DNA of 64,000 nt from contig CAUYUJ010000002.1 in the NCBI GenBank assembly GCA_963575745.1, positions 2,170,001 to 2,234,000 on the forward strand. The letters run 5' to 3'. Positions 6,446 to 61,700 of the stretch are shown here, piece by piece; position 1 is the first letter of the stretch, and the number at the start of each line of letters is the position of its first letter. Under the pieces are notes generated by a model. It saw nothing but the letters and a program-made list of their open reading frames with translations, was not told the origin of the DNA and did not search any database. Made by a program: the position numbers and the translations under genes. Source of the DNA: Prorocentrum cordatum (Eukaryota).

Positions 6446-6848
6446 AAGCTGAAGGCCCAGCGCGTCAGCCCCAACGCACGGGCGCCCCCACAGGGCACGA
6501 TTGGGGCTGCAGGCAACGACCTCCGCGCCTGCGCGGACGTCAGCATTGCGAGCTGGGGTCGACGCGCGCGGCGGCCACAGCACCGCTTGGCACTTACTTT
6601 CGCGCCGCCCCCCTCTCCAGACTCGCCCTCAACTCAAGGGGTGCGACGTCGCGGGCGGCGCGGCGGGAAACGACTTCCGCGGCGAAATCTGGGTGACCGT
6701 GGCGAACACCAGCCCGCGGGCGCACGTGGTCGAGCAGGGCCGCCGAATCGCCCAGCCCATCCTGGAGCGCATCGTCAAGGACACCGAGATCGCGGTCGTT
6801 CCCAACCTTCGCCTGTCCTCTCGCGGACGCGGAGGACACGCTGGCATG
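6446..6848 (+). pseudogene. dUTPase (trimeric type), frameshifted
   Basis: KLKAQRVSPNARAPPQGTIGAAGNDL (motif 1, AGxDL); after a frameshift GAAGNDFRGEIWV (motif 3, DxDYRGEI), GRRIAQ (motif 4), RGRGGHAG (motif 5, RGxGGFGS). Confidence 0.8.
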
Positions 6849-8139
6849 GCGCTCCTTCGCCAGGACGCCACTGCGAGAGAGGCGGCGGCGCGACGTCCAA
6901 GGGGTCGGTCGGTGCCTGCGGCAATGAAGGCTCCGAGGAGCTACCCCGCTCGGAGACCGCCAGGGCGGTCCGCGAGGCTGGCCCCGCCGACCTGCATCGA
7001 CAGGAGTGGGCACCAGGACCAGGACGCCCTGCGCCCTAGAACAAGGACAGGGCACATCATTAGCGCTACAAGACCACGGCTTCGGCGTCTTTCGCACTTC
7101 CGACTTGGAGGGCGCCATCAAGTCGCGGCTCACGCACGATGCGGACATGGACGCGACTCACCTCATCCTCGATTACTTTCCCAAGTTGCGCGCCAGGGTC
7201 AAGAACAGCACCAGGGTGTTAGTGATTTTTGGCCGGCAGCCAGCAGGGCCACAAGTGGAAACAACCAGCACCATGGCAGATGTTCGACAATCACGCGTTC
7301 CATGCCAGTACGCATCAGGCTTGCCACAAGCCTTTGGCCCCAGAGGCCAGACACATCAGGGCAGTCTGCATGGCGCTCACTCAGGTCCCCATCTACAGCC
7401 AGCTGCGCCGATGCAACATCAAACTGGAGGAGCACATCGACGACTAGACGATCATCAACCGACGAGTGCATTTGGCCCTGAGATGTGCCGCGAAGAATTG
7501 CGATTCACACCCTACTGCAGTCGCACTCCAAGCAGCAAGGTCGCATCGAGGAAAGTACGCTTTCAACGAGGCACGACGGCAGTTTGTCAACCAGACTCGA
7601 ACACATCTTCGAGTCCAATGTCAGAACGCAAGCACGACACCCGGCAGCACACCAACGACCACGCGCAAAAAGGCACCTTCCAGTCCTATAGCAGAACGCA
7701 AGCACGACACCCAGCAACACGCCCAGGACCGCGCGCACGCGAACACCTCGAACACCTTATAAGCACGAACAACCAGAGGCGTCCGGTGACTGCGCCACCA
7801 GCGCCTGCCCAGCGGCAGAGCGCATACGCTAGAAGGCGAAGATAAGGAGGACCATGCGCTCAGGGCACGCAAGCAGGTCGTCGAGGACCACTACGACGAC
7901 TGCGGTTCCGACCTCAGTGGTCTGGCCTCTTGCCTTCTTTGGCGACTTCGGTTGCGACGACGGGCGCGAAGAGGACGACCTCTATGGCAACCTTACCGCA
8001 GGTCTGCCCACGCGGCGGTTCCGAGGCTCGTAGACCAGGTTTTCACCGCCAAACGGCCAGCGTGCAATCATCGCAGTCCACCGAGCTCGACACCATCCAC
8101 CACTTCCTTCCCGACCTTGTTGTATTCGGCTACGGCGTC

Positions 8140-33949: not shown

Positions 33950-35260
33950 GCAAGATTGGAAACCAAGACCGTATTGAAAATTTAAGCTTTCGCATGCTTC
34001 CAATGTTGCACAAACTATAGGACTGTTTGTATGTTATGCCGACCCTTCTGCTCAGCTCAGGTCCGTTGCCGCCGTCGGCGTTCAGTAGCCCACCCAAGTA
34101 GATCATATTGTCCCTCTGCGGGATTGTTGACCCGTCTGGTCGGGCCAGATGTGTCTCGCATCCCACGGACACAACCTCGAGCTTGCCCCAATTGAGCCCC
34201 ATTCCATAGTTCCTCCCGGCCTCGCGCACGCATTCCATCAGCTGTTAGACGTACTCTTCGTCTGCCCCGACGATAGGGGTGCAGTCGGCGTACATGAGAT
34301 CGCTAACCAGAATTGAGTTGGGTTGCAACATGCAACAGCCCGCGACCAGCAAAATTCCGCTTCGCGTCTTGCATGAGGCCCGTCATCACGATCGAGAACA
34401 GTGAGCATGGGCATCCCTGCGATATGCCGAACGCTTGAGGCCAAGATTCGGAGGCTGAGTCAGATCTCGGACGCGGGAGCTCCTGTGGTTGTATATTCCC
34501 GTCACAGCGGCGGCGAAGTGTTCAGGGATGCCGAAGCGGATCAACGCCTGCAGGAGGCTATTTGGCGACACGTTGTCGAATGTTTTAGCCCAGTCGAGAG
34601 CGAGAAGAAGCAATTTCCAAGACGCCGTGTCCACGGTGTCCTCGATCAGCCGCCGCGCTACAAACAGTGCGTCGGCCGCTCCACTACCGGATCGGAATCC
34701 AAACTGCGCGCCCCAAATCCAGTCCTCGGCGCCCGCGCCCGTCAAGTGCGCAAGCAGTATCACGGCGTAGGGCATGTGCCCGATGGGAAAAAGGGATATC
34801 GGAATGTAGTTCTCGCACTCGGCGACGTCGCCTTTTTTGAAGATGGACGTGACCATCGCATCGCGACAGGCGTCGGGCACATGCGCCTCCGTCCAACACC
34901 GATCGCAGAGCAGAATGGCCCACCCGCATACTGGCGCGTCTGAGCTGCAGACTGCCTTCCAAAACTCAGCTGGGACGCCGTCACTTCCGGCAGCTCGATC
35001 CCGTTTCAGCGCACGCGCTGCCGCGCGCATTTCCGCGCAGGTTGCTCGGGCCCCAACTGTTCTGGATCGCTCACGGCAATGACTGGCCGCTCGGCCCACT
35101 GCGCGGCGGCGACGCACACGGCCAGCGTTCGGGCCCGCTCGTCGCCATCAACTTCCCGGCCGCGCAGGTCCCGCAATCGCCCTGGAGTGGCGCCGCGGGG
35201 GTTCTGGAGCTTGCGCGCCTGGCCCCAGTTGCCGTTATCCAAGAGTCCGTGAGCCAGCGC
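33950..35260 (-). pseudogene. LINE (RTE-like) reverse transcriptase fragment
   Basis: AAGSDGVPAEFWK, IFKKGD..ENYIPISL, QFGFRSGSG, LALDWAKTFDNV, YAD, LNWGK, YLGGLL; frameshifted. Confidence 0.9.
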
Positions 35261-35803
35261 CCCTTGTCATTCTTGATGGATGCCTTGATCCTCCCGTGGA
35301 AACGTTCCCCCTTCGCTGAGCCCCGTCTGCAGCAGCAGCGAAATCATCGACCGCGGCATCACTCCAGCGGCCCAGGGGCTGGCGCCGGCACGACGTGGGC
35401 ACGCTGTCGCGAGGCGACAGCAGACAAAGTTCGGGCCGCGGCGCCTGCCGGTGTTAGCAGGTCTGGTCTCGAGCCCCTCTCGCGCTCTGATTTCGGAGCC
35501 CCCGTGCGCGCGCGGCATAGCAACGGGAAGCGATGCGATGCATGCGCGTAGCCCCGCCAGCTCAACGTCTGCCACTCCGCGTCGCACAGAGGGAAATCGA
35601 TCTTACCGCAATATTGCGGCGCGTCTGGGTCTCCAGGTTGGGACCCCACGCTGCGGCGCGCGATCTGGCCCCCCGCGGAATGGTCAAAGAAAGTGTTGGC
35701 GACGACCAGCCCCCCCTTCTCCCGCGTAGATCCATCAGCAGGCTTCGGTTCGACCGAGGGTTGCGCCGGGCCAGCGGGCCCCTGGGCCCGAAGATCCGGA
35801 CCC

Positions 35804-36448
35804 AGAGATCGGCGACTTCAATTACGCGCTGAAACTTCAAGAGAAGAACATCAAACAGTGCCAGCGAATGATGCAAGACGTCAAAACAAGTACGAGACGC
35901 AGATCGACTACCTGACGGCGCAGAAGAGAAAGCTCAACAGCATCTTGCTCAGGTCGCAGATGCTAAACACGAAGAACACCTTGGAGGCCATCATGATCGG
36001 GGGGAACATGCAGACGCTCACGGACCAGCTGACGGGCATCGAGGAGGCGTTGACCGCCACGCTCCAGGCGCACGGCAGCCTACAGTTCCGCAGCGAGGCC
36101 CCACCGAAATACCCATCGAGCAAGGAGTAGATGAAGATGCAGGTGGACGAGGCCAACCACTTGGAGGACCAGGTCACGCCGATCCGCACGCAGCGCGCCA
36201 TGGAGCTTGCAAAGATCACGCTGGCACCCCCATGGGACGCAGGAGACCCGAGCACGTGGGTGTTCTACGGCTGGACGCCTCCAGCAGAGGGCATCCCAGC
36301 ATGGAACAAAGACGACCCGAACACGCGCGTATTCTACGGATGGAAGGAGAAGCGCCCATGGGTGGACTACCAGAAGGGGCAGGGAAGTGAGAGCAAGGTG
36401 CAGGCAGAGGAGATTGCGATTGGTTCGGACGGTGAGGGAGAGATCTGA
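35804..36448 (+). pseudogene. Coiled-coil / Trp-repeat protein, disrupted paralog of 43615-44382
   Basis: Collinear similarity (IGD..Y..KLQ..NI..C; AQK..L; QTL.DQ; AHGSL; PPW.AGD.S.W.F.GW.PP..GIPAWNKDDP.T..F.GW...WVDY); frameshift near 35885 and TAG at 36128. Confidence 0.8.
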
Positions 36449-37513
36449 TCAGGAGGTCGAGGCAGCAACTACCCGCTCTCAAAGTATGGATGGGAGTTTT
36501 TTTTTTAAATCTATATATATATATATATATATAAAAAGAGATAGAGAGAATGAGAAAACACACATATATATATAAAATCCGTCAGGAGTTGATGCTGCGC
36601 AGACGAAGAGTACCCCGCGCAGGGCCAGAGGACCTGATATATATATATATATATAAAATCGACGGTTCAGATACACGACGGACAGTGCCACCAACAACAT
36701 CCTGGGACCTTTGTGCACGGACAGAGACGGAACGGACAGAAACAACAGCACCCACTCCAATTATCACCCATGCCAGCCCCAGACCTGAGTAGGAGGAGGT
36801 AGAGTTTCTTCGATTGTTTGGCCCTGTCTGAGAGGGAGGGGAGGGGGGGGGAGGGGGAGGAGGAGCCGCGCGCGCGGCGCCCCGCCGCGCTGGGCTACGT
36901 GGGCTACGCAGGCGCGCCCCGCTGGCGCCGCCCCCTCCCCCCTCGCCTCTCCTTCTTGTGTGTGTGTGTGCGTGGTGTGGGTGGTTGAGCGTGCGTGTGT
37001 GTGTGTGTGTGCGTGGTTTCCCCCCTCGAATCACCGAGTGCGCCACCCCTTGCCCTGGGGCTCAGGGCGCGGCTCTCGCGATGAGCCCTGCCCTAGCCCC
37101 CCAGCTGTTGAGCGAGGGAGGCACCCGGCTCCCTGCGCGAGGCCCACCCCCGCGAGTACGTCCCTGGGGAGTGCGCTTCAGGCAGGCCTAGGCGATCAAG
37201 AAATTGGTCCCAGGCCCATGCATCCATGTCCATCGCAGGGATACTACTAGAGCTTGCTGCCGCTGCCGCTGTAGCTGTTCTGACTCATCCCCGAAGCGCC
37301 TTTGCTTTTTTTGCCTCCCCCTCCCCCTCCCCCTCCTCATCCCCCTCCTCCTTCTAGTCGGCGTGGGCAGGATCGAGGCTTTACCGACCCGCCAGGAGGG
37401 TGCGAAGCTTCCACCACGCGACTTGCTCGGCCCATCCGCTCGCTGCCTCGGCCAAGGGACGGGGCAGGGGGAGAGGAGGCCAGTCACGGCCACATACACT
37501 CGCAGTCCGCCTA

Positions 37514-38640
37514 ATGAAAATAGTCACTCACAACCCGCAGAGCGCAGCGATGAGCGAACGACTAGAAGACGTTAGTTGCGAGCAGAAGGGCTGGGACATA
37601 GTACTATTAAACGGAACACATCACTGGGCGGCAGCAGAGGGAGTATTTACCCACCGACTACCGCACCATTTGGCATATCGGTTTGGAGAGAAGAAAGGCA
37701 AGCTGGTGACGAAGGCATGTGGAATCGCTATTCTAGTAGCTCACCATATACACCCGACGTCCCTACGAAGCACTTATGTCCCCCCAGCCGAGATCCAAGG
37801 TCGAGCGGGGGGCCTCCGTATCGGGTCAAGAGAAGAGGACTTCTGCTTTTTTCGCGTTTACCTCGCCCCCACCCACTGCCAGTCCTTCTCCACGATAGCA
37901 AAAAAAGTGACGGGGTGGGTAGAGAACCAGTGCGACGGGTTGGGGGCTCGCTGCACAGTAGTGGTAGGGGGAGATATCAACAGCCAGCTAGGCTTGCATA
38001 GGGGACCAGACGGAGTGGTCACTGCTAACAGAGGAGCTACGACGGGACCAAAACACCACTTTCTGGAAAACGAGAACGGGCAGTATTTCAGGGAGATGTG
38101 TACAGGTTCCAACCTAGCAGTGGCTACAACGTATCACGACGTGGGCCCGACCTATTATTCCCCGAAGGGAGGCTCCAGCACAATCGACCGCATTGCTATT
38201 CCAGTTTCGGCCCTTCCTGCGGCGTCTCGCTGCGTAGCGCTGCGCACGTCGGCGAAGAGGCTGCAGCTGATAAGGGGGAGAGGACACAGAGACCACATCC
38301 CCATAGGCATGGTCCTAGATGTATCGGGCAGGAACAGTTCTGCGTCGGTGCGAAGGGAAAGGGAGCCCCCCCTGGATCGGGACAAGCTGATGGAATGCCT
38401 CCGCAGAGGCACAGCGCGCCCCGACCTTTTTGCTGCTCTGGAGAGGGAGATGGAGGGGATGCAGGAAGAGTGGGAGCAGGCGAAGCAGGAGGGGACGCCC
38501 GACAAAATGCGGGACCTGTGGAGTGGAACAGCTCGGAGGGCGCTGGACACCTGCTTCCGACAGGGGGCAGAAAGACTTGGACTCGACTACGGAAGTGGTG
38601 CGAGAGCGACGGATGGCACTGTTAGCAGAAAGGAGGGCCC

Positions 38641-38714
<74 letters not shown>

Positions 38715-41700
38715 GTAGATGGCGAGTCCGACGAACAACTTGTGCAGACACACCAGGAACTCTCGGAGATGACGGCCCTACTGAAGGTTTTGAGGCAAGA
38801 CGCCGAGAAGGCGAGAAGAGCTAAACTTGTGGAGGAAATCTGGGAAGCCCATCAGAGAAACGAGTTCAGCACCATGCACAGACTACGCATCCAGTACCAG
38901 CGTAACGGCAGAGGCCCAAAAAAACGATATTATCAGTCAACTAGAACTCACTGGCCGAAAGAGGAATGGCTTCGAGAACTTGGGAAGAGACCCGAGGAAG
39001 GAGGACTAGCAGCACAGGAGATCGACCTGGATGAGTACGTTAGGGGGCAACGGGAGAGAATCGAAGAGCAGCTACCTCTGCCAGAAGATACGGAGGCCAT
39101 GGCTCTCATGCTGTTGGACAAGAGCTGGATGCTGAAATATTGTAAAAAGGCGGCAGAACGACGGGCCTGGCCTAGATGGGGGATCCCTGTGGAACTGACT
39201 TGGGTGATCCTGGATCCCTCGACGCATCTTGAGCACCCAGAGCTCTTGAGCCGCCAGATAGAAGCCAGTGGGATTCGTGCAGCTGAAGGGAGAGAGGACG
39301 AGGAGGATCTGAGCAAGTACACGACACTGTTTCGTTATCGAGTAGGTAGAATAATTTTGAAAAGGATGGGATGGAACAGCGGGGAGAGACTGGGCAGTAC
39401 GGGTGAGAAATTGGACGGCGCAGAGTTGGACGCTTGCGAAGTGACACCGTACTTTGTGGACCGACCAGAGAGAGGAGGATTGGGCGCGGCCAAATTGCGC
39501 AGGAACGACGAAGAGGGACCGTATTTGTTCCAGCAGCTTCTGGATCAGCTGTTGATGAAATGCAGGACATCGCAGGTGACCCCCCTGGCGTGGCATCGTT
39601 CAATTTCCTTTGATGCGGATAAAAACAATGGGAAACCAGGCATCGGAGGGAAACGTATCATGCATGCATACGACTCTATGAGTATGGCGTGGCATTGTGG
39701 TATACACAAAAGGGGCCCTCAACCTAGTCACCCCCCATGGGCCCAAGGAGGCCTGGCACGCCGGAGCCGCGAAAATGCGATTCTCTGCTTACAGGCGGTG
39801 CAGTGGAGGGCTAGGGAAGGGGGAGTGAGTATTGTGCACACAAACTACGATTGCAGCAACGCGTTTGCCAGTACGAAGCGGGAGCTCCTCCAGGCGACGG
39901 CATGGAAACATGCGAGCGAGGCAGACCAGCCATTCGCCCTAGGAGCTATTTGCAACACACAGCTCAGCATACGTTGCGCAGATGAGTGGCTGCACGCAGA
40001 GACGACGGTGGGGGCCCAGATGGGTTTCACTCTGTGCCCGCGCCAGTTCAACGATGTCTACAACTTGTATGTAGACAAGTGGCTTCAGTCGGAAAGAGAC
40101 AGGGATATACACCACACGTGGCACGACACACGGAATCCTGTGACTGACACCTGGCACGATTTGGCACTGAACACGTTCATGGACGATGTGACGCGCACAC
40201 ACGCGATTCTACAGGGAGCAACGACCAGCGCGGTGACAGAACAGCTGAATGGAGCCACGACTAGACTGGAACAGACAATTGGCAAGGGCGGATGGAGGTT
40301 GAACCAAGGCAAAACCAACCTCCTCTTGTGCATCTGTGGCCCTGGGAGCTACACAGCGACAATGCAGCTCAGACGGTCCACTGAACTGAAGGAGGAAGCG
40401 CTACGAGAGATGAGAGTCCTTGGACCTTACCTCCCATCCGACCAGGGGCTGGGGGGGGGAAGTGCGCAGACGGATATCAGCCATGAGAGTGGCCTGGAGG
40501 CAATGTGGCTGTTTTTTGGAGCTCAGACACCCCTGACCCCATCAAGCGCACCATGTTCATTGCATTCGTCTTGGGAGCCGCATGGAGCGGCATGGCGGCT
40601 TTCGTTCTCCCAGCTGACCTGACAGATGCCCTCGGTGCTGTGATTGGGAAGTACTTGCGCAGACTTGCAGTAGGACGGATGAGTTGGCGGCTCGAATCAG
40701 GTGAGACCCGTTGCTATCCGACAGCACGAGTGTTCAAATAATGAGGGATAGAAAGAAGTGCCACAGCCCTCAGGACCAGGCGATTAAAGTGGCACAGAAA
40801 CTGGGCGGTGCACCCCCACGAGCATGCACATGTCATTGCTGCAGTGTTTGGCGAATCCAAACTAGACGAGAGGAGACAAATTCGCAGGCTGCAGGCGCAC
40901 AAGTGGGTGTGGTGTTGTTCGACCCCGTGGGCCCTACAACTTAAAGCAGACCTGGATGCACTGGCTGAGGTGGCGGAGGAAATGAAGGCTTGACACGACA
41001 AACGGACCTCGGATTTCGAGATCTTTTGCCCAGGGACCCAGGCGTGGCAACAGTGGACAAACATGGATGTGACAGTTATCCGCAGTGCAGCACTGACTTG
41101 GGCCCAGGGGAAGGAGGACGAGGAGTTGAAAGGATACGAGGAGGTGACAAAGCCTTTTTGGTGCGAGTGTGCGGTTACGGACGAGCAGGGACATTCCAGG
41201 GTATGTGGGAAACGTTTTGCGACGACAGCGGCACTCATAGGGCATCGCAGAGAGCTGCACAACATCCGACCATTGGTAGCCAGCTTAGTGGAGACTAACC
41301 AATGCCCTTGGTGCGAAAGTACCTTTGCAGACAGGCGCACGGCAATCGACCGCGTCACGAGGGCCGCCGACGGACATGGAATATGCCACCGTGACCGCAG
41401 CAAATGGAGCCACCCAGATGTCCCACCAGCAAGTTTGAAGTGCAAGATCTGTGATTTTGAGGCTCAAGACCTGCCAGAGTACCACGCCCACGCGAGGACT
41501 CATCACCCAGGCCCCACTTCGGTCAGAGAACCAAGAAGGGTGCGGCACACACAGGAAATGCCAGCCGAACTCATGGGGCTGCGACCGCTCGACGTGCCAG
41601 CTTGGGGCCTCATGCGCAGGGCAGACAGAGGAAACCTCCAGCAGTCAGACGAGAGGGTCACGAAGGAGGGCAAGGGGGGCTCCCAGCAGGCCAAGGGCGG

Positions 41701-42540
41701 GGACTCGAGCGGGGCGGCGGCGGCAGGAGGAGGCGAACCACCGCGCAGACCAGAGCCGCAAAAAGGAGGAGGCAAAGGAGACGATCACCACACCCAACTC
41801 GGACAAGCCATCAGCAACCTGCAGAAGCTGTCGCTGCGCACGGCGATGATGGCACGAGAACAGCAACACCTCAACTCGGACTTCTGGCTGATCCCAATCT
41901 CCTGTTCGCCGTGTCGGGTGGCCATCGAAACAGGAAAAAGACTACGCCATGCAAGTGAGAGCGGCGGGGAGAAAAACACTCGATGGGCCCTCCACACGCC
42001 CGCGTCGCAGTTGCTACGATCTCCGAGGTGAAAAACGTCCTGGCGGCGACGATCAGCAAAGAGGGGGGGGGGGGGATCGGACTCTGCAGTGGGGCTACGA
42101 GATCCTCCAGCACTGGTTGGACTTGGCGTTCCACGAGAAGGGTCGAGAGTTCGTGCTGGAGACCCTGAAGCAGTTCAAGATGTCGGAAGCGTACAAGCCC
42201 AAGGGTCAAGAAGACGACGGCAACGGGAAGGGCAAGCTGCTGTACACGATCAACCCGACGCCGAGCATCAGGGTGGCCATGGGCGTCGAGAGGATCCCCA
42301 AGGAGAAGGACGAGTTCGAGATGGACGAGGACGGGGACCTAGAGAGCATGAAAAACGGGGAGGGGGTATCAGAAGGACGAGCTGGACGAGTACCACCCTC
42401 CCTACCTGAAGCAAGCGATGGGCCACACGCTGAAGCTGCTGGGCGGGGTCTACAGCACGAGCCACGGCCCCAAGAGCGACCTGGAGAGGCAGGTGGAGAA
42501 GCAGTTGCAGGCGTCGAGGTCGCAGGGGCAGATGGACTGA
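37514..42540 (+). mobile_element. LINE ORF2-like: APE - G-patch-like insert - RT - C2H2 fingers - unknown 3' coding region; lightly frameshifted
   Basis: APE: MKIVTHNP, DIVLLNGTH, GGDINS, NENG, PTYY..TIDRI, DHIPI. RT: GIPVEL, W..S...DKNNGKPG..KR, YDCSNAFAS, GAQMGFTLCPRQFN, FMDDV, LNQGKT, LGPYL. Zn fingers: CGKRF..H...H, CPWC, CKIC..H...H. Several breaks fall at G homopolymers. Confidence 0.88.
38643..38710. repeat. (GA)n microsatellite within the LINE ORF
   Basis: Direct reading; translates as (ER)n. Confidence 0.97.
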
Positions 42541-43614
42541 CCAGAGATGCGGAAGCGTCCATCCAGAGCGGCCAGGGCGCGTCCAGTTCGACAGGGCCCG
42601 CCAAGACGCCAGTGCGCCCAGCCTCTTTCACGGCGGTGCCCTCGCATCAGACGCTTGCCCTGCCAGTGGCAGCCCCGCAGTCTCGAGAGGAAAAGCTGGC
42701 AGAGATGTTGAGCCGTAATCCAGCATCGATGGAAAAAACTAAAAGAATTAGCGGGCCAAAGTGGAAAAGACGGAAAAAGCAAGCAGCTGCATGAACTAGC
42801 CAAGCGATTTCAAGCAGAGCGGCCCCAAGCATTACGATATCACCCGGAGGGTGCAGGAGGGCGAGGGGGCAGCGGAGGTAAACGAGTTTAAGATCAACAG
42901 CAGAGCTTACTACGGACTGGAATGCGACGGGGGACAGACAGCACAAGTATGACGGTTTTTGGGTTTATACATTTACGACGGGCACGTACAGGTGACAGGG
43001 GAGGGCAATACTACAAGGACGGGACAGGGCACAGCACGATTGCAGAAGGATGAACTGGCAAGGGAGTGGGGACACCAGAGAGCACAAGTGGTAGGCTACG
43101 TAGGCGGGGAAAGTATTGTGACGAACGCTGCTACAGAGGGGGGGTCTGGACAGAGAACTAGGCACCGACATCGGCCCCTCCTTTTGTTCCGTGTATACGG
43201 CATTGCTTCAGCGCGGATAGCACTCAGATGGGGGTAGCAGCAAGCAGGACATCGGATGCCAGTACCAGCTGTCCAGTTTTGTTCACACAAGAGAGCAGAC
43301 ATGCATGCGGGGTCCTAGGCCTAAGGCTCCCAGGAGGGCCCATGGGAGAGCTCTACTATGCTCGGGGCGGGGGGGGGGGGGGCGTAGCGCCCATGCGGGT
43401 GGGCACGATCCCTTAAAGGCGACGGAGCGCCCCCCCCTCGAGTCTCAGATTGGTCGCCTGAGTCCTCGGAGAGCTCACTCTGCTTGGACTCCTGCCACGT
43501 GCCCCACCGACGGTTGGTCGCAACAGGAGTGGAACATCCGTAGCACAACTGGCTTACCACAGTTGCGGTCTTGTTTTGGCTCGCCACGCTCACTTTGCAT
43601 CAGCCTGTCCCGTG

Positions 43615-44382
43615 ATGCAGCAGATGCTGCCAGCGATCGAGGAAGCACCCGTGTTTCGCGGAGACACCACGGCCAACCAAGTCATTGGAGACGAGGCATA
43701 TGTGATCAAGCTCCAGGGGGCTAACATCCAGAAGTGCGCGGACACGATGGCGGACCTCAAGAAGAAGCTCGAGATGCAGATCGAGTTGATGATTGCCCAG
43801 AAGAAGGTGCTGAGTCAGAACCTGGCGCGCAGCCAGCAGGTGAACAACACGACGGCGGAGGGGGCGTTCATGCTGGCGGAGAACACTCAGACCCTGGCCG
43901 ACCAGATCAAGAGCATCGACGAGACCACGAGCGCGCTCATCACAGCGCACGGGTCATTGGCATGGAAGCACGACACACCCTTGCAGATGGCACCGACAAA
44001 GGAGTACAGCAAGCTCCAGCCCGACGAGAAGGAGGACCTGCAGGGCCTGGTCATGACGCAGAAGGTGCAGAGGGCCATGTTCGAGGCGAAGAGGGCAAAC
44101 AACGGCACCATCCCACCGTGGAGGGCGGGCGACGAGAGCTCGTGGATCTTCGACGGGTGGGCGCCGCCAAAAGGAGGAATCCCGGCGTGGAACAAGGACG
44201 ACCCGAAGACCTGGACGTTCCACGGGTGGAGGGGGCCTAAGAAGTGGGTCGACTACAAAGAGGGCAAGAGTTCCAAGCCAGAGACGCCAGAGGAAGTAAT
44301 CCCACAGAGTGAAGCGACGGCAGCATCATCGAGCGACGGGTGCAACGTGCCGATCCCAGAGTCAGAGGAGGACCAGCCTTAG
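43615..44382 (+). CDS. 255-aa coiled-coil protein with duplicated Trp-rich motif, probably LINE-associated (ORF1 or accessory)
   Basis: Intact ATG..TAG ORF, strong GC3 codon pattern, protein-like composition, conserved paralog at 35804-36448. Confidence 0.75.
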   Translation: MQQMLPAIEEAPVFRGDTTANQVIGDEAYVIKLQGANIQKCADTMADLKKKLEMQIELMIAQKKVLSQNLARSQQVNNTTAEGAFMLAENTQTLADQIKSIDETTSALITAHGSLAWKHDTPLQMAPTKEYSKLQPDEKEDLQGLVMTQKVQRAMFEAKRANNGTIPPWRAGDESSWIFDGWAPPKGGIPAWNKDDPKTWTFHGWRGPKKWVDYKEGKSSKPETPEEVIPQSEATAASSSDGCNVPIPESEEDQP

Positions 44383-45579
44383 AAAGGAGCAGTGAGTGAG
44401 GAAGAGAGGCGCATCGTCACTGAGCGGCCGCATGCGCAGTTCCATTGCATTTCGCATTGCCGTTGACCGTTGAGAGGCTGGCGAACGCAAGAGAGAGACA
44501 TAGTCATGTGGGGACCACGGAAACAACATGCCATGCCACTATGGATTGTGATTGTGATGACACGACTACGGGTCAGTCCACTACTGATGGGGACAGACTG
44601 TCAGCTTCAATCACCGCTAGACTCACCTAGAGGCGTGATCCCCCACAGGCAACCAGTTTCTGCACCACCCCGTCTAGCGTTCTTTTTTTAGGATTCGAGG
44701 AGTGGGGGGAGGAGGGGGGGCGGTCGTCTCGCTTCGTGCCGCCCGCGCCGCCGCGCGCGCTTCGCGTCAACGGCGTGGCCGTGACGCAGGCGCCCCGCGG
44801 CGGCCCTCCCTCCTCCTCCCCTCGGGTTGTGTGTGTGTGTGTGAGTGGGAGTGTGTGTTGTGTATTGTCCTCCTCCTCCTGCTCCTCCTCCTCCTCCTCC
44901 TCATATTAATCCGCCTCCGCCTTCTATACCTCCTCCTCGTCCTCCTCCTTCTCCTCCTCCTCCTCCTCCTCATCCCCCTCGCCCTCCTCCTCCTCCTCCT
45001 CCTCCTCTTCCCCCTCCTCCTCCTCATATTAATCCGCCTCCTCCGTCTATTTATCCTCCCCCTCCTCCTCCCCTTCCTCCTCCTCCTCCCCTCCTCCTCC
45101 TCGTCTTCCTCCTCCTCCTCCTCCTCCTCCGCCTCCTCCTCCCCCTCATATTAATCAGCCTCCGCCTTTTATTTATCCTCTCCTCCTCGTCATCATCATC
45201 ATCATCATCATCAGCATCATCCTCCTCCTCCTCCTCCTCCTCCTCCTCCTCCTTCTCCTTCTCCTCCCTTTCCACCTCCCCATCATCATCGCCCTCTCCC
45301 AACCCCTCCCCCGTCCTCATCCTTCCCCTGCTTCTTCTCCATGTGCCCCCCCCTCCCCACCTGGTCGGGGCAAGCAAATCGATGTTCCTCGGCGCCGTCG
45401 CCGCCTCGGCCAACGCGCGCGCGTTCGCCGACGGCTTGTTCGAGAAGCCTTCGGGACAGCTCCGCGGGCCATGCTTTTGGGACAACCCCGCGGGCCTCTG
45501 GGGCGCGGGGGCAGGCCGTCGGGGCAACCCCGCTGGCCAGACCGTTGGGACAACCCCGCGGGCCTCTAGTTGCGCGCCG

Positions 45580-52476: not shown

Positions 52477-52583
52477 TGTGAATGCCATCCAGATTTTAAT
52501 CCCTAGGTTCAGCGTTTGGAGAGTCCGACCGTTTCGCGTTCTGGCTCAAGGGAAAAACATCCCAGGGGCGATCTGCTGCCACA
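52477..52583 (+). repeat. 5' LTR (107 bp)
   Basis: TGTGAATGCC...CTGCCACA; identical to 62122-62228. Confidence 0.97.
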
Positions 52584-52585
52584 GT

Positions 52586-52602
52586 TGGTAGCGGAGCGGG
52601 GT
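52586..52602 (+). promoter_or_regulatory. Primer binding site, probably tRNA-iMet
   Basis: TGGTAGCGGAGCGGGGT 2 nt after the LTR; TGGTAGC matches the complement of eukaryotic initiator tRNA 3' ends. Confidence 0.8.
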
Positions 52603-52722
52603 GACCCCGCTTCGGGCCCATGGGAGCTCCGGCGCGGCGCTGAGGAGGCGCTGTCCAGGAAGCTCTCGAGCGCCCGGAGCGAGGACCTCGCTTCCAGGTC
52701 CGACTGGCGTGGAGATCCACGG

Positions 52723-55700
52723 ATGACGACGCGAGACGGCAAGGAGAAAGAGTCCCCAGCCGAGGCTCCAGCGAGCCCAGCCGCAGGGGACACGCTGGCA
52801 GCGGTCACACCGGCGCAGCTGAAAGAGATGATTGTGGGAGTAGTCCGCGAGACTATGGGAGCAGCATCATCGTCTCAGACGCCGGTGGCCGCGGCCACGA
52901 CAGCAGCAGAAGATCCCTGGTTACACGGCTGGACCGACAGCAGTGCCAAGGGAGATCGCCAGGAGGACCCGTGGAACTGGTCCGACGCTGCCGGCTGGCG
53001 CTGGGGAGGCGCTGAACGGCAGCAGGGGGGCGATCAAGGCGACAGCACGAACCAGGCCTGGGAGCACTGGACCGGCAGCAGCAGGGGCCATTTTGGCACC
53101 AGTGCCGGCGACTGGTGGGGATGGGCCGCCGGTGGCGGCAAAGGCGACTACTCTGATCCGCCGCCTTGGCCTGGTTTCGGACACTATCGACAGTGGAGCC
53201 GTGCTATCCGCAGATGGAGTCAGAATACCGACGTAGCGACATGGCGCCGGGCTGAAAAATTGTTCAAGCTCTTCGACTGGAACCTCCAGGCCAAGTTCGA
53301 GGATATACCCGAGAGTACGCTCAACAGCGCCTCGTGGCTGGAGGTCATCCTGCGCCGCATGGACACTATGGCTGGAGAGCGTGAGGGCGACGACCTACGA
53401 CGTGCTGGGCGCCGAGCCCTATATGAAGCAGCACGCGAGCCTCGAGAGACGCTGGTTCAGTATGTGATCCGCCGTGAGGCGCAGCTGACCGAGGCAGAGG
53501 GGCACGACATGTGGTTTAGCCCAAAGTTGAAGGGATTGCTTCTAGAGGAAGGCGCCGGATTGTCTGCTCAGGGTCAGCAAAATCTCAGAACCCTGACTCA
53601 CGGACGCCTGGACTACGATAGCGTGTCCTGGGCCCTCAGGCAGATGGACGCAACCAGTTCTGAGAGGCTTCTTCCAGGCCGTTCTGCAGGCACACTGTTA
53701 GCAGGTCCCGCGGCCGAAGAGCCCGGTGACGACGAGCGTGCCACAGCAGCATCTCAGCCTCCCTCCTCCACTCCCTCGTTCCCCGCTGGTAGGTTCGAAG
53801 GTGGTGAGGAGACAGGCGACGGCTCCACGGACCAGGAGGAAGTTGACGACGACTTCGAGGACGAAGCTGTCCTTCTCGAGGAGCTCGAGGATCTCGACCT
53901 CTACGAGGATCAGCTGGACGCCGCCCTCGAGGCTTTCGCGGCCCGCCCGACGGGACGCTCCTGGAAGGAGAACAAGGATCTCAAGCGCGCTGCCAAGCGC
54001 GACCGAGAATACTACGGAGGACGACGCCCAGCAGCCGGACCACGAGGAGCTACCGACAAACCCAAGGTGGAGCGCCCGTCTCCACCGTCCAAGGGTGCAG
54101 GTCGAGGCGACGGCCGTCGAGGAGATCGGCTCAGGCGCAGACCCACGCTCACCCTGGAGCAGAAGATGAAGGTGACCCGCTGTAGGACGCGCAACCAAAA
54201 GGGCCACTGGAGTCGGGAGTGCCCGAAGAACGCCGGAGCAGACCGACGCATGGCGGCATATGCATTCAACGGCATGGCATCGACCGACAAGGTGCTCAGT
54301 CCGGAGGCGATGGAGATCTGGAGGACCGTTCATCGAGAGATCAAGGAGGATGACACCTTCCTGGCATCGCTTCCGTGCCAAGGGCTGGTAGACCCTGGGG
54401 CAGGGAGTGATCTCGTCGGCGTCCAGGCTCTGAATCGAGAGTCACAAGCACTAGCAGAGCACGGTCTCAGATATGTTGAAGTTCCAGCCGAGCATAGACG
54501 ACATGTCGCCGCCCACGGCGTTGGTGGGCCGGCCAAGGTAGTAGCCAGCATCCTCTTTCCACTCTGTCTTTTCGGAGTTCTCGGAATAATCGAGACAGCA
54601 GTGCTAGCCGATGACGTCCCCCACATCATCAGCGTCAATCTTTTAGATTTTTTGGGCTGTGTTCTGGACCTACCCGAGAATACGTTGGCGTCCAGTAGGA
54701 TCGGAGAGACGACAAAGCTCACGAAGCTAGGATCAGGCCATAGAATGGCCGACATCGTGAGGACCCTTCGGCCAGGAACCTCTGTACCAGCTGGAGCGCT
54801 TCAGAGATGGCCGTTCCTCACAGCCAATTCGTTCGAATATTCTGGCGGCCCGGTGCAGCGCATGTCAGACACGGGTGTCGTGGGGCACTACATCTATCTC
54901 ATCATCTCATGTGCCCTTGGTCTGAGTATCGCGTTAAGAAGAACCCGCTCCCATAGAAGGGGCCCCTGGAACTCCGATTTCAAGGCCCACCTCAAGGACC
55001 CAGAGGCCCAGCAGACCACAGATCACGAGGACCCCGAAGACCTCCAGGGGGACGCTTGCGAGGAGTACACAAGGATAGCCGACACGGAGAACGTCCTCGG
55101 CTTCACAGGCCACTTAAGGATATACTCGACGGAGTTCGAGAGCAGTTGCGAGGACCTCTCGAGGACAGAGCAGTGCCAGGGTCAGTCCCGGGCTCAGCAG
55201 GGCCTAGCAGAACCAAATCGGGGCTTAGCGGAGTTCCGTCACACTAAGGTGATCCGGAGGGAGCTCGTCAAGGCTGAGGCCATAACTCGGACCCTGTCGA
55301 GAAACAGGATGTCACTCCATAGAAGCAGTATTCCTCAATGGGTCACGGCTCTTGCCTCCGTAGCCTTTCTCGGCTCGAAGCTTTCCAGCATCGACCACCC
55401 CGAGAGTATTGGTTCTCTTTCCAGTCAAGATCAGAGACAGGACAATGCCTCTAGTCCTGGCGACGCTGATGTTTCTCAGCACCACGGGCGTGGTCCGCGG
55501 AGGACCAAAGAAAGCTCCACCCGACCTCCCGTCAAAGGAGGAACGGGCCCGCCAGCTCCGAGAGCAGATTCGTCGGGTCCAGCAAGAATACGAGGAGCTA
55601 ACCAACGGGATGGAGAACGAGACGGGAGCGTATCAGCCGGAGACGGGAGCAGCCGCGGTCTCGAACCACTGGGTCGGCACCAGCAGCGGCAGCAGCTCGG

Positions 55701-58700
55701 GCGCAGCCGCAGCAGCGCCAGGGGCAGCAGCCGCGAGCTCAGGAGGTTGCGGACGGCCGAGCTGGCCTCAACAGCATCCGCAGATACAGAAGCCCATGCC
55801 GAAGGCATCGAAGGTTCCCTACAAGCCGCCTCCTCAGTGCGACCATCCCGCAGACCGGAGGCAGCCATACGGAAATCAGCACGGGCGAGGTTTCAAGTGC
55901 GGGCTGTGCGGCTACCGCCTGGAGTGGACGCCTCGGGAGCAGGAGGGCGGTGCTCCAGCCGAACGGCCCGAGTCGGCGGCTCAGGCAGCCCGTCGGGCCG
56001 CTGCCACGGCGGAGAAGACCATCCAGATGCTTCAGGAGAAAGAGGGTTTCGTCGACGGCGCAGCGACCCTCAACGCCGTGAACGGGATCTCGGCGATGAT
56101 GACGTCTCTCTCCCACCATCTTCAGAATCTACCCGAGGGACTGCAGCTACTGGCCAACATCCAGCCGGTCGTCGAGCAAATGCAGCAGCTGGTGGCATCC
56201 AATCAGATCGGCAGCAACAGCCAGCTGGAGGAGGGACTCAAGCAGGTGTACCAGTCGGTGGTCCACATCCAACGCATGCTAGGCGTCTTCGAGAATTTCG
56301 GGGAGTCCATCGACTCGATTGCCGATCAGTTGACCGCGATGCAGCTCGAGACAACGTCGATGCACCAGGCAGTCGATCACATGCTGAATCTTTTAGTGCA
56401 GGTAGCATCATCTGTCACCGCAATGGCGCATGCGATGAATCAGCACGCAATGGCCAGCTCCAGCAGCGGGAGCGGCTGGCAGAGTGGAGATCCGTGGACT
56501 CCCACGGCACCAGCCTGGACGGCGCCTCTAGCGCAGCCGCCGGCCAAGACGCCTCCTGCCAAGCCGTTCCCAGCTCAGGCGACGGAGATCTGTTCGATCC
56601 CAGAGGGTTCAGAGGAGGAGGACACGACCTCCTCCACTACCACATCGGTCGGCACGTGGGACTTGGTGTAGATCAGTCCCCTTGCCATTGCTACTCTCGC
56701 CACAGGGCGAGGGATTCCCAGTCACGACGCATGTGCGTCGCCGGCTCTTTTACTGCCGGCTCTTGCGAAAGAAAAGAAAGAGAGGAAGGCCCTCCAGAAC
56801 ACCAAGGGGGCCTCGGGAGCTTCCCTGTAGGTTTCCCAGTCTTTCGGGCCGAGTCGAACGGGGCCTACGCCACGGCTGGACGGGGCTCGAAAACCACGGA
56901 GGACGGCCTTCTCGAGAGTTGGATTGATGGTGATCTTTTTAACGACGATCACGAGTCGGCCTGGGGACCCAAGGTTCGGAGAGCTCTCGACAGGCAACTC
57001 GAGACCCACGGGTGCCCGTCCTCGGGAGCTTTCAGCGCGAGACAGGCCACCAAGGCCAAGACCTCGTTCATGGAGGTCTTCTCTCCCCCTCGTATAGCCC
57101 CCGAGGTGGAAAAGAGAGGGGGGCGTCTGGGTTCGAGTGCGAGTTTCGACAGGCTGACGGGATGGGACTCGGGGATCAAAGAACACGTTCGGCACCTCTG
57201 GAGGGAAATCAAGAAGAACGATCCCGAAACGATATGGCTTAGCTCTGAGTGCAAGGTCTTTTCCGCGATCAACAGGATCAATCGAGATCGCCGCGATCCC
57301 CAAAGGTGGCACCAGCAAGTCCTCGAGGGTCTCAGAGATCTCACGTTGTGCATGGAAATAGCTAAATATCAACACTCGAGAGGCAGGTTCTTTGTCTTTG
57401 AACATCCCCTGTACGCCAGCTCGTGGCACACTGAGGTCGTCCAGCTGATATCCTCTCTCCCCTCTGTCAGACGACTAAGGGTAGATATGTGCGCTTTCGA
57501 GCTACGGGTGGACGACCGTGGCCTCAACAAGAAGCCTACCGGTCTGCTGACAAACCATCCTAGGATCTTGTCTTTGTTGGACGGGAAGCTGTGCACAGGG
57601 GGCCACAGACACGCCATTCTTGAGGGAAGCCGTCAGACCTCCAGGGCTGCCGTTTACTCAAGTAAATTTGTGAGGACTGCCGCGAGAGCCATTGTTGAGC
57701 ACTGGAGCGGGTCTGACGAAAAGGTCAGGCCTACGTGGGCCCAGCTGGTTGACGAAAGCTTCCCTACGATAATGGCAGGAGAAGGTCTGGGAACCATCCC
57801 TGAGGAAGAGGAAGTCGGAGGAAGTGAAGCGAGCGATGGTGACGAACCCGAGACCAGGCCACAGCAAAACTCCAAGAGTGCCGAGATTCCAGACGAAGAA
57901 CCCAACGAGGACGAAAAGAGACTCCTGTATAAGATTCACGTGAACATGGGGCATCCCGACTCACGCAAATTTTGTCGGGTGCTCAGGGCTGGGGGAGTCA
58001 AAGCTCATTTAATCCGGTGGGTCCGCCATAAGTTCCAGTGTTCCGAGTGTGAAGAGAGGAGCAAGCAGGGCACGCACCGACGGGTTGCGCTGCCTCGCAC
58101 TTTTCGTTTCAACCACATAGTTGGTGTGGATCTCTTTTACCTGGAGTTCCTGGGCCAAGCGGTTCCTTTTCTTAATGTCGTCGACCACGGGTCGAACCTT
58201 CAGGTCTGCACCCGCGTGGCGGACGCCAGAGCGGCCACGGTGTGGTCGGGGTTTGTGCAGTCCTGGATTAGACCCCTCGGGGCTCCCCACCTTCTCATCT
58301 CGGATGGAGGCTCCGAGTTCGGGGGTCGTTTCGCCAGAGGACTGGAACACTGGGGGGTCAAGCACCATGTGTGTGACGCCGATTCTCCGTGGCAAAATGG
58401 GAGAGTCGAGCGCCACGGGGGATGGATAAAAGAACGTGCGCGCCAGGAAATTGACTCGGGTCCTGGGGCCCCGGTGTCGTTGGAGGAGCTGGATACCCTC
58501 GTGTACGAGCTGACTGCTCACAAGAACAGATTTTGGCACAGAGGGGGCTTTTCCCCGTTGCAGTTGGTCTTTGGGGAAAATCCCAGACTCCCACACGAGT
58601 TGCTCTCTGACGACGCCTCTGGTCTCCCGGGCTGGCAGGACCTGACTCGCAATCCAGCAGAGCTGGACGAAGCTGGCGCTGAGTTCTGCCGTGCTCAGGA

Positions 58701-61700
58701 AATCAGAGCGGCGGCCAGAAGGCTCGCTATGGAAGCCACGGCCAGAGAAAAGATCAGCAAGGCTTCCCGCGCCAGGAATCCCAACCCCAGGAGCTACACA
58801 CCTGGCCAGTGGGTGTACGTTTGGCGCCACATGGCGAGAGCCACTTCCCGGGCCGACAGTCTCGGAAGACGTCGAGACGGCTGGTGCGGTCCTGGGGTGG
58901 TGGTCCTGGCCGAGGGCGGAACCGTGTGGGTGGCCGTCCGGGCCCGGCTGTGGAAATGTTCGGCGGAACAGATCCGCCTCGCCAGCCCAGAAGAAGAGTA
59001 CGGTATACAGCTTGCCCAATCCCCGCAGTGGCAAGAACTGATGCGTCAGGCCCACACTCGGAGGGCCACGGCCGTCGACGTCCAGAGAGAAGGACCTCCT
59101 CCCGAAGACGCTTGGGACGATGCCATTCGGAGAGAGTTGGATTCGGGCCCTCAGCTCCCCGGGGCACCGTGTCCTCCCGTTCGAGAGGAAGTCCCTGCTC
59201 CAGAGACGCGACGTACCGACGGAACGCCCGATACCTCCGGTCCCCCTCCGACTCCCGGAGTGATCCCCCGACGCAGCCCCAGAGAGGCTCCGTCAGAGAA
59301 TGGATCCATGGAGGCGCAGGCGGGATCAGAGGTGACGAGGGTCCCGTCCACCGGAGGGCCCGAGGAAAGCTCAGGCAGATCGTCTCCCCACGGAGGCAGC
59401 GCATCTGGGCATGAAGTGAGGAGCGAAGAGGCTGAACCTACCCACACCCCTGCTCTCGCTCCCTCTGAGTCTCCCGACATTCCCCTTGACGAGGGGCGAG
59501 AAATCGAGGATCTTGAAAGAGATCACCCGGAGTCACGGCTGGAATCGCCTCAGGAACATGCGCGAGGGCCGGTCACCCAGGCTCCGAGACCGAGAAGACT
59601 CGCCCAGCCCCAGGACGTTCCCGCTTGCATTTTAAGATCTCGCAGCGGCAGAGCTGCCAGCGAGCCTCCCGACAAAAGGGTGAGGATTGAACCACCCCCT
59701 GGCCTCTCGGAACCATCCACCTCTCGTCCCGTTGATCCTTCCTCCTCCTCCTCCTCCGCCACCAGAGTTCAGGAGATTCAGGGCGGCACCGAGCCACGCC
59801 GAAGTGTGAGTGAGATAGTCAAGGCTCTGGAAGCGGGACGCCGACCAGAACGTTCGAGGTCTCCGCCCAGAGAGCCAGAGAGGAGAGAGGAGCAGGAGGA
59901 GGAGGATTTCTTTTTGGTACCGGCTGGAGAGGCCGGGTCTGGTCTTCAGGCCAAGACCAGGGAGCAGCTTGGAGAGACCTACGCTGCCAGTAGAGGAGGA
60001 GAGGTCTCGTTTAAAAACCTCACTCCGGCCGAGCGGGCCAAGTTTCAGGCATCAGACGATAAGGAGTGGAAGTCCATGGTCGAGTCGGGAGCGGTGGAGG
60101 TCCTGGGGCCGAAGGAGGCGGAAGTCGTGCGGAAGGAATGTCCGGACCGGATCATCTCTAGCAGGATGGTCCGCAGGTGGAAGCCGGTAGAAGGTATTTT
60201 CAAAGAACCCGAAGCAAAGTCCCGTTGGTGCGTACACGGTCACAAGGATCCCGACGCCGGATCTCTGCAGGTGTATTCCCCGACACCGCAAACGTCAAGC
60301 ATCACCTTGTTCGTGCAGGTTCTCATGAACCTTGGCATGAGGGCTGATATCGCCGACGTGAAAAATGCTTTTTGCCAATCCGACAAGATGGTGAGGTCCC
60401 AGGGAGAGATCTTCGTTGAACCGTGTGATGGCGTCCACCTTCCGGCAGGCTCCATCATACGCCTCAAGGTTAACGTGTACGGCCTCGACGATGCCCCAGT
60501 AGCATGGAGACGAACTGTCGTGTCATTTCTAGAACAACAAGGGTTTTCTCGGACACTACTGGAACCGTGTTGGTGGTGTCGTTATGGGTCGAAAGGGGAG
60601 TTGCTAAATATGATCCTGCTGGAGGTCGATGACTTCTTCATTGGGAGCCTCACGGAAGAGAGTCGGAAGTGGTTTCGAGAGCGCCTTGAATCAAGATTCC
60701 GTTTCGGAAAATACAGGGACTGTCACGCAGGGCCAGTTGACTACGCTGGCAGACGGGTGACTATAGGCCCGAACCGGGCCACTATCGACATGGAAAAATA
60801 CATTATGGAAGAACTTCGGCCTATCTCTCTTGCCAAAGGTAGGCTTGCTGCCCGGGACACTCCTTTGGAAGACAGCGAGTTCAAGGCACTACGCTCTCTT
60901 GTTTTTAAGTTTAACTGGATAGGACGGGAAGCTCGTCCGGAGGCTTCAGGACCAGCAAGCATTCTCGCTAGTCGTCTCAAGGCAGCCACCACGGGAGACA
61001 TCAGTCTGGCCAACAAGCTTGTCAAGCATCTCAGGGCCACCGCTTCCCGTGGTATCATCGTGTGGAGGCTCGATCCCGAACGTATGTCCTTCGCCTCGTT
61101 CTCAGATGCGGGGGGCATAGGAGGTCCTAGTTTAGACGGCGAACGGGGTCTCCCAGAGGATCCCACACAGGGCGCTTGGATGGTATTGGCCTGCGACAAG
61201 AGCATCGCCGAGAATCGTTGCGTCAAGGCGTCAATTCTAGGATGGCGCATCTCCAAGTTGCGCCGTAAAGTACCATCCACTCTGGCTGGCGAGACACAAG
61301 CTCTGGCCGCAGCTATTGCTGAGGTAGAATACCTCCAGATACTGTATCGTGATGTGGTTTTCAGAGATGTGACTATACGAGATCAGCACAGATGCTCAGG
61401 CCCATTTACAACAGTACTACGTCGTGAGTGCCGTTTGGGCGCTCGAGAGGGCCAGATTCATATCGTAGACGCAAAATCTATATACGATACTATGCTCAAG
61501 GAGGGTAACGCCAGTGCGAAAGACCGCCGTACGGCGATCGATTTAGCTATCATATGTGAGGCTCTGGAACAGGCATCAGGACGTATCCGCTGGATACCCC
61601 ACGGGAGGATGCCCGTAGATGCGCTCACTAAAGACGACGTGACCAAGTGCAATGCTGCACTGTTCGATTTGATGACCAGCGGGAGGATAGTATTGGTGGA

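Follow-up and report, generated by a model that had tools for sequence, protein, structure and literature searches.

A G-patch motif between reverse transcriptase motifs 0 and 1 in a clade of diverged LINE retrotransposons

Results

We analysed a stretch of 64,000 nucleotides from the assembly GCA_963575745.1 (Prorocentrum cordatum, contig CAUYUJ010000002.1, positions 2,170,001 to 2,234,000, forward strand), referred to below as the window. Between 37508 and about 42031 of its plus strand lies a decayed copy of a long interspersed nuclear element (LINE) of the apurinic/apyrimidinic endonuclease (APE) type, that is, a retrotransposon without long terminal repeats (non-LTR). Its second open reading frame (ORF2) encodes, in this order, an endonuclease, a pre-RT region, a reverse transcriptase (RT) and C2H2 fingers. 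This report is concerned with an insertion in the ORF2 linker between RT motifs 0 and 1 which, judged from its sequence and that of its relatives, consists of an acidic helix followed by a G-patch.

The motif lies in frame inside a 743-codon ORF (38391-40622, plus strand), and YTTLFRYRVGRIILKRMGWNSGERLGSTGEKLDGAELDACEVTPYFVDRPERGGLGAAKLRR, the translation of 39318-39503 on the same strand, contains the peptide that the initial annotation had quoted. It is composed of the segment GRIILKR, corresponding to the brace helix, then MGW, G331, the pair L334-G335, a 27-residue spacer and finally G363-L364-G365. In a study on M-PMV (Mason-Pfizer monkey virus) the G-patch pattern is printed as Gx2hhx3Gax2GxGlG...GhG with a spacer of 20-26 residues (PMC11459146), and the window copy agrees with this pattern at all fixed positions except the glycine of 'GxG', where it has R333. 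A relaxed form of the pattern occurred once in the six frames of the window and in none of 200 dinucleotide shuffles, and the 17-residue core by itself was found 0.015 times per shuffle; the control is a lenient one, because the relaxed pattern was composed after the sequence had been seen. The M-PMV study describes the general layout of G-patches as a brace helix in a disordered linker, and includes M-PMV's own G-patch, located between protease and RT, in this description. In an AlphaFold2 (AF2) model of ORF residues 240-743, a helix at model residues 65-86 (ORF residues 304-325) ends at GRIILKR, and model residues 86-132 are disordered, with a predicted local distance difference test score (pLDDT) below 50, which leaves 47 disordered residues between the helix and the RT core. 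The short N-terminal amphipathic helix and the surrounding disorder, both AF2 predictions, match the layout given in PMC11459146.

The stronger evidence for the nature of this stretch comes from the family. An exhaustive search returned 606 relatives at E≤1e-3. Among the 150 best relatives listed, 13 have the core h-x-K/R-M/L-G-W-x-x-G at the same site, further fragments start inside the motif, and more carriers were added by further search. The stretch was aligned in 19 rows, which have 24-63% identity to the window copy. The invariant columns include the G, W and G of MGW..G, the glycine of LG is conserved to at least 90%, and R...AG-h-G stands at the end. In the clade the motif opens with an amphipathic helix (GRxhhxK/R), which is followed by MGW..G..LG and by a disordered stretch that closes in AG-h-G. 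When 18 members were scanned, PF01585 was matched by six at E≤0.01 and by 11 at E≤1, and no second family recurred. The Pfam gathering cut-off of 22 bits for this family (26 bits for PF12656) was passed by P0085 (27.2 bits, profile positions 2-43 of 45) and by P0145 (26.9 bits), and three members from ENA (P0163, P0085 and P0169) carry a precomputed PF01585 label.

Comparison with proteins of solved structure pointed in the same direction. A profile of the family stretch gave 12 matches in the PDB at E≤10 (best E 3.4e-4), each of them to a G-patch protein: SUGP1 (twice), RBM5, TFIP11, S. pombe C1486.03, GPKOW, GPATCH1 (twice), PXR1, NKRF, a STIP1 homologue and CMTR1. RBM5, TFIP11, PXR1, NKRF and CMTR1 are counted as G-patch proteins in part by their names. 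With a wider alignment (A1), G-patch proteins were the top three of 14 PDB matches and six of the 14 overall; the S. pombe TFIP11-like protein aligns over the full length of the motif, R-x-x-R-x-GLG included, with two 4-residue gaps. A phmmer search of the PDB with the whole 743-aa frame had only one match at E≤1, the SUGP1 G-patch 8ejm_B (E 0.04), ungapped over 20 residues upstream of the motif, and a SUGP1-like protein as donor of the G-patch may be considered a weak lead. Taken together, the stretch, in the window copy as in the family, is very probably homologous to the G-patch. The initial annotation, which had named it as such, is borne out at the level of the family, and the insert is not private to this copy, being kept across a clade of diverged relatives. 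Its identity as a G-patch rests on these family-level tests, the window copy by itself being a weak match.

The position of the domain is well defined. It sits between RRAWPRWGIPVELTWVILDP (RT motif 0) and TPLAWHRS...DKNNGKPGIGGKRIMH (motif 1), as alignments with full-length relatives confirm, and tblastn matches of full-length relatives jump from window position 39335 to 39579. Both the location between RT domains 0 and 1 and the description as an inserted domain, as first annotated, therefore stand, the domain being absent from other members of the same LINE group. Among 34 relatives with both anchors (two of them mis-anchored by the search pattern), the linker from motif 0 to motif 1 measures 24-49 aa in 26 and 58-83 aa in four; it measures 95 aa in P0133 and 125 aa in the window copy. 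Short linkers keep only a G-[LVI]-G in mid-linker, often preceded by R or G and aligned with the final GLG of the G-patch (seen in alignment A6 in G-patch-less relatives such as P0010, P0029, P0048 and P0086). The acidic stretch in front of the motif is also conserved in the G-patch clade, with the A1 consensus AAExxxDEExLxK. In one clade of this LINE group, the surface linker that joins motifs 0 and 1 thus holds an insertion of about 75-80 residues, made up of an acidic helix and then, on the family-level tests, a genuine G-patch.

Phylogenetic analysis was carried out on 60 rows and about 180 columns downstream of the motif, with the motif columns left out and 46 representatives of the 64 G-patch-less rows included. 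The 13 carriers in the tree form one clade, with an ultrafast bootstrap (UFBoot) of 96 and a Shimodaira-Hasegawa-like approximate likelihood ratio test (SH-aLRT) value of 91; the G-patch-less P0008 is its sister, and more G-patch-less lines lie outside. The more distant members of the clade have diverged to about 24-40% identity over the stretch and retain the motif. Since the carriers are a derived clade, gain is a simpler reading than loss, and the main clade reads as a single gain in a tree whose root is not known. The same placement led us to drop the idea that the G-h-G of the G-patch-less relatives is a relic of an ancestral G-patch, again with the reservation about the root. P0133 (679 aa, NCBI) has a near-canonical G-patch, LLRLGWREGEGLGRDAHG, at residues 263-300 (PF01585, 21.2 bits). 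Its site is the same motif 0 to motif 1 linker, where it follows the G-V-G instead of preceding it. In the tree P0133 falls with six G-patch-less rows in a different supported group (97/86). A single origin with the main clade was rejected, a tree constrained to unite all carriers being worse by 57 log-likelihood units (approximately unbiased (AU) test, p 7.8e-5, for a group named after a first quick tree had been seen). A second, separate gain of a G-patch in P0133 is thus probable from the placement of its sequence.

The fragments closest to the window copy (98%, 95% and 87% identical) carry the label of the green alga Pyramimonas sp. CCMP1952 in EukProt, as do six further diverged carriers; other carriers come from ENA assemblies, and Amphidinium carterae is among the sources of G-patch-less relatives. 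One full-length ORF2 of this LINE group, P0053 (1616 aa), comes from a 25 kb contig that NCBI assigns to a 'bacterium', where it stands as a hypothetical protein; the contig is probably a mis-binned eukaryotic one. Two DNA runs were used (shares 0.35 and 0.25, short contig pieces only), and in one of them (X1) 117 contig pieces showed 80-100% likeness over 38900-40600, indicating many diverged copies. Among the 40 best-supported differences (of 159) between the window copy and other copies in these runs, 24 leave the amino acid unchanged and 24 affect the third position of a codon (binomial p 4.9e-4). This third-position bias argues for past coding constraint on the RT frame; constraint on the motif itself is not measurable, because only three of the listed differences fall there. 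A scan of metagenome contigs with a single protein matched 450 stretches, none of which was confirmed.

The rest of the element (Table 1) is that of a very diverged LINE. ORF2 occupies two overlapping frames in the window, 37358-38824 and 38391-40622. The endonuclease model found as its best Foldseek match the human LINE-1 ORF2p endonuclease 1vyb_B (E 2.5e-13; template modelling (TM) score, target, 0.74), and the region is colinear with the N-termini of full-length relatives (e.g. P0095 4-351, E 1e-30); Pfam Exo_endo_phos was not detected in the window copy. For the RT model the best Foldseek matches were human LINE-1 ORF2p 9hdo_A (E 5.1e-13) and Bombyx R2 8gh6_A (E 7.1e-11). The catalytic xxDD motif is present as FMDDV, a profile of the relatives matched R2 in the PDB at E 1.2e-3, and Pfam RVT_1 reached only E 0.08 on the RT part of the window copy. 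Matches to zf-C2H2 are weak both in the window ORF and in the relatives. The relatives include full-length proteins, 1200-1800 residues long, which match Exo_endo_phos, RVT_1 and, at the C terminus, C2H2 only weakly; the window is colinear with them over 37511-38557 (endonuclease), 38712-39335, 39561-40532 (RT) and 40511-41524 (C-terminal part, fingers). The (AG)34.5 repeat reads as (ER)n in both frames between endonuclease and pre-RT region, and the change of frame from endonuclease to RT occurs in or next to it; a slip of the repeat by one unit would shift the reading frame. The frame changes back to frame 2 near 40500, and three in-frame stops break the C-terminal part, an adjacent pair at 40739-40744 and a single one at 40991-40993. 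Neither a poly(A) nor any other clear 3' end was seen in 42500-43560.

Table 1. Features of the LINE copy and of its surroundings in the window
Feature	Positions	Strand	Support or remark
dUTPase match (PF00692)	6453-7478	+	29 bits, above cut-off; perhaps from a host gene or a different retroelement
Fragment of another reverse transcriptase (RVT_1)	34389-35147	-	E 7.5e-6; just upstream of the LINE, on the opposite strand
ORF1-like frame, about 1 kb upstream of the endonuclease	35552-36448	+	ORF list; in-frame stop 36128-36130
APE-type endonuclease domain of ORF2, reading frame 2	37508-38560	+	AF2 mean pLDDT 91.2; Foldseek; N-termini of relatives
(AG)34.5 microsatellite inside ORF2	38643-38711	+	Tandem Repeats Finder, 100% matches
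Pre-RT region, ending in RT motif 0 (RRAWPRWGIPVELTWVILDP, 39159-39218)	38712-39218	+	tblastn P0029 403-578, P0111 253-432, P0055 427-565
First part of insertion: acidic helical stretch ...IRAAEGREDEEDLSKYTTLFRYRV leading into the G-patch	39219-39344	+	Absent from G-patch-less relatives
G-patch motif, G319-G365 of the ORF	39345-39485	+	Sequence, Pfam, PDB and family alignments
Reverse transcriptase core, motifs 1-7, including YDCSNAF and FMDDV	39516-40487	+	AF2, residues 137-460 mostly pLDDT >90
C-terminal part of ORF2, back in frame 2, C2H2-type zinc fingers	40511-42031	+	tblastn P0010 910-1237, P0029 905-1231
Second ORF1-like frame	43462-44379	+	39-48% identical to 35552-36448
(TCC)134 array	44868-45267		Encodes long stretches of Ser/Pro/Leu when read in several frames; lies downstream of the ORF1-like frame 43462-44379
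Copia-type polyprotein, very long	52507-61965	+	Uninterrupted frame of 3153 codons with integrase (rve) and RVT_2

Two ORF1-like frames flank the element. Both contain W..GW.PP..GIPAWNKDDP, and no Pfam family was matched on either; the second lies downstream of the LINE and is followed by no endonuclease or RT of this LINE family. They are possibly the ORF1 of the LINE, and the membership of the upstream frame in the element is uncertain. Elsewhere in the window, Pfam searches of 48 long frames found only other transposon domains. About 1800 residues upstream of the integrase in the Copia-type frame are without a Pfam family.

Discussion

The occurrence of a G-patch within the polymerase of a LINE raises the question of what it does there. 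We propose that the LINE G-patch tethers a host DEAH-box helicase of the Prp43/DHX15 type to ORF2p and activates it, as cellular and M-PMV G-patches do. The M-PMV G-patch recruits DHX15, and the virus needs the two of them for RT activity and for packaging its genome RNA (PMC11459146). The substitutions Y880S, G883A and G887A in M-PMV reduce DHX15 uptake (PMC11459146), and in our mapping these positions correspond to W328, G331 and G335, all of which are present in the window copy, with R333 between them. The insertion site would adjoin the entry of the template RNA into the RT, and a helicase held at the RT N-terminal extension could rid a GC-rich template of structure or of bound proteins before the polymerase reaches them. 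Because DEAH helicases translocate 3' to 5' on RNA (PMC11459146), the direction in which the RT reads its template, such a helicase could clear the template in front of the enzyme; alternatively, the tethered helicase may serve in assembly of the ribonucleoprotein (RNP). That the G-patch has a selected function in the LINE seems likely to us. That helicase recruitment is this function is an argument by analogy, towards which we lean slightly, and our main statement as a whole, helicase step included, is narrowly favoured in the same way. The fuller evolutionary scenario is held more tentatively, and we are marginally more inclined to doubt it than to accept it: a LINE lineage would have captured a host G-patch into the RT N-terminal extension, thereby equipping ORF2p with an activator of its own for a DEAH helicase (Prp43/DHX15 type) that runs 3' to 5' on the template ahead of the polymerase, and an unrelated lineage (P0133) would have done likewise at the same linker.

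A number of observations count against this proposal. The window copy is dead, with two frame changes and three in-frame stops in ORF2. The carriers seen are all fragments of at most 393 aa with the exception of P0133, and no intact full-length ORF2 with a G-patch was found among the relatives collected. The 62-residue window piece scored 18.4 bits (E 2.1e-3) against PF01585 and 20.5 bits (E 4.9e-4) against PF12656, both under the cut-offs, so that the PF01585 match proposed as a check in the initial annotation was obtained for the family (P0085 and P0145, and the three precomputed labels) and not for the copy in which the motif was noticed; seven of the 18 members scanned were without any G-patch match at E≤1. 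R333 replaces a consensus glycine that has been lost in most of the clade, and the spacer of 27 residues before the final GLG is one over the published 20-26 (PMC11459146). The three listed differences between copies that fall inside the motif are all amino-acid changes (I321R, K324E and A344T), none of them at a signature residue. One could imagine that the resemblance arose by convergence or that the stretch is a neutral leftover, a Gly-rich insertion that resembles a G-patch and is of no use to the element: the window copy is below the Pfam cut-offs, the motif is short and low in information, and the carriers are all fragments, many of them decayed. Against this, two members score above a curated cut-off, and every PDB match of the family profile is a G-patch protein. 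Conservation is moreover highest at the signature residues, in a linker with 24-63% identity elsewhere, and the single clade of carriers has split into several subfamilies. This explanation is already disfavoured by the evidence, and we regard it as very improbable.

Two further explanations accept the G-patch as genuine and differ from our proposal in its use. The stretch may be selected without any helicase, as a flexible Gly-rich binder of RNA or DNA at the template entry or as a hinge that joins the pre-RT region to the RT core. Originally, G-patches were put forward as modules for RNA binding (quoted in PMC9289625), and the site within the RT N-terminal extension would suit such a role. 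The linker probably has a role of its own, since every G-patch-less relative keeps a short G-h-G there, and the loss of one consensus glycine in most of the clade also counts for this reading. On the other hand, the solved structures matched by the family profile are all from proteins named as G-patch factors, and the residues that are kept, namely the hydrophobic ones of the helix, W, G+3, G+7 and the G-h-G at the end, correspond to the positions described as required for DHX15 uptake (PMC11459146); we consider a role without helicase unlikely. It is less probable still that a DEAH helicase, or another G-patch partner, is recruited for a purpose other than reverse transcription, such as targeting of the RNP to the nucleus or nucleolus, or diversion of a host factor that restricts the element. 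Most cellular partners of Prp43 belong to the nucleolus or the spliceosome. For the M-PMV pair of G-patch and DHX15, the role discovered first was in genome RNA packaging and DHX15 relocation rather than in polymerisation (PMC11459146). The sequence itself is neutral on this point. A role at the template accounts more readily for the position inside the RT N-terminal extension, and helicase recruitment in the service of the polymerase remains the reading that we prefer.

Several known systems resemble the arrangement described here. In M-PMV and other betaretroviruses, as in this LINE, a retroelement carries a G-patch in a disordered linker that immediately precedes the RT, and a short helix is predicted at the N-terminal end of the G-patch (PMC11459146). 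M-PMV is, however, an LTR retrovirus with its G-patch after the protease, whereas here the element is a non-LTR LINE with the G-patch within the RT N-terminal extension; compared with M-PMV, the window copy has its 'GxG' glycine replaced and a longer spacer. Ty3/Gypsy LTR elements of dicot plants likewise have a PF01585 G-patch as an accessory domain (PMC9289625, which cites the G-patch of type D retroviruses). These are LTR elements of land plants, in contrast to a LINE that we assigned to a prasinophyte-like alga, with its G-patch at a defined RT position. The cellular cofactors of DEAH helicases (SUGP1, TFIP11/Ntr1, NKRF, PINX1/Pxr1, RBM5, GPKOW, GPATCH1 and CMTR1) share the sequence motif and are the only PDB proteins matched by the family profile, but they are host RNA-processing proteins and not parts of a polymerase, and the canonical cellular spacer is about 8 residues shorter than that of the window copy in the alignment with the S. 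pombe TFIP11-like protein. Human LINE-1 ORF2p is the best fold match for both endonuclease and RT and has the same order of endonuclease, linker, RT and Cys/His tail. It differs in that identity in the fold matches is about 11-17%, the tail here is made of C2H2 fingers, and Pfam RVT_1 and Exo_endo_phos are barely or not detected in the element. We know of no G-patch in L1. In the open full-text literature that was searched, no paper came up that describes a G-patch in LINEs or any other non-LTR elements, and the literature on DHX15 with LINE-1 retrotransposition, judged by the list of papers, contained nothing apparently relevant.

LINEs are usually seen as carrying a small and fixed set of domains, namely endonuclease, RT and sometimes RNase H or zinc knuckles, with host helicases acting only as outside factors. 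G-patches in retroviruses and Gypsy elements are already known, and what appears to be new here is the G-patch as an accessory domain of LINEs, in a little-known and highly diverged LINE group. Members of this group in marine algae and dinoflagellates are barely recognised by Pfam, and at least one of them stands under a bacterial label, which is of practical importance for annotation. If the proposal is correct, a conserved G-patch in ORF2p would make this a first case of a LINE with a helicase cofactor of its own, and the parallel with the M-PMV G-patch and DHX15 would represent convergent evolution of non-LTR elements and retroviruses. It would also provide a testable handle on helicases in target-primed reverse transcription, in the form of a peptide of about 50 residues and of three point mutants suggested by the M-PMV work (PMC11459146). 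Finally, together with betaretroviruses and plant Gypsy elements, these LINEs would indicate that capture of G-patches is recurrent among retroelements, and that reverse transcription may have a general dependence on DEAH helicases.

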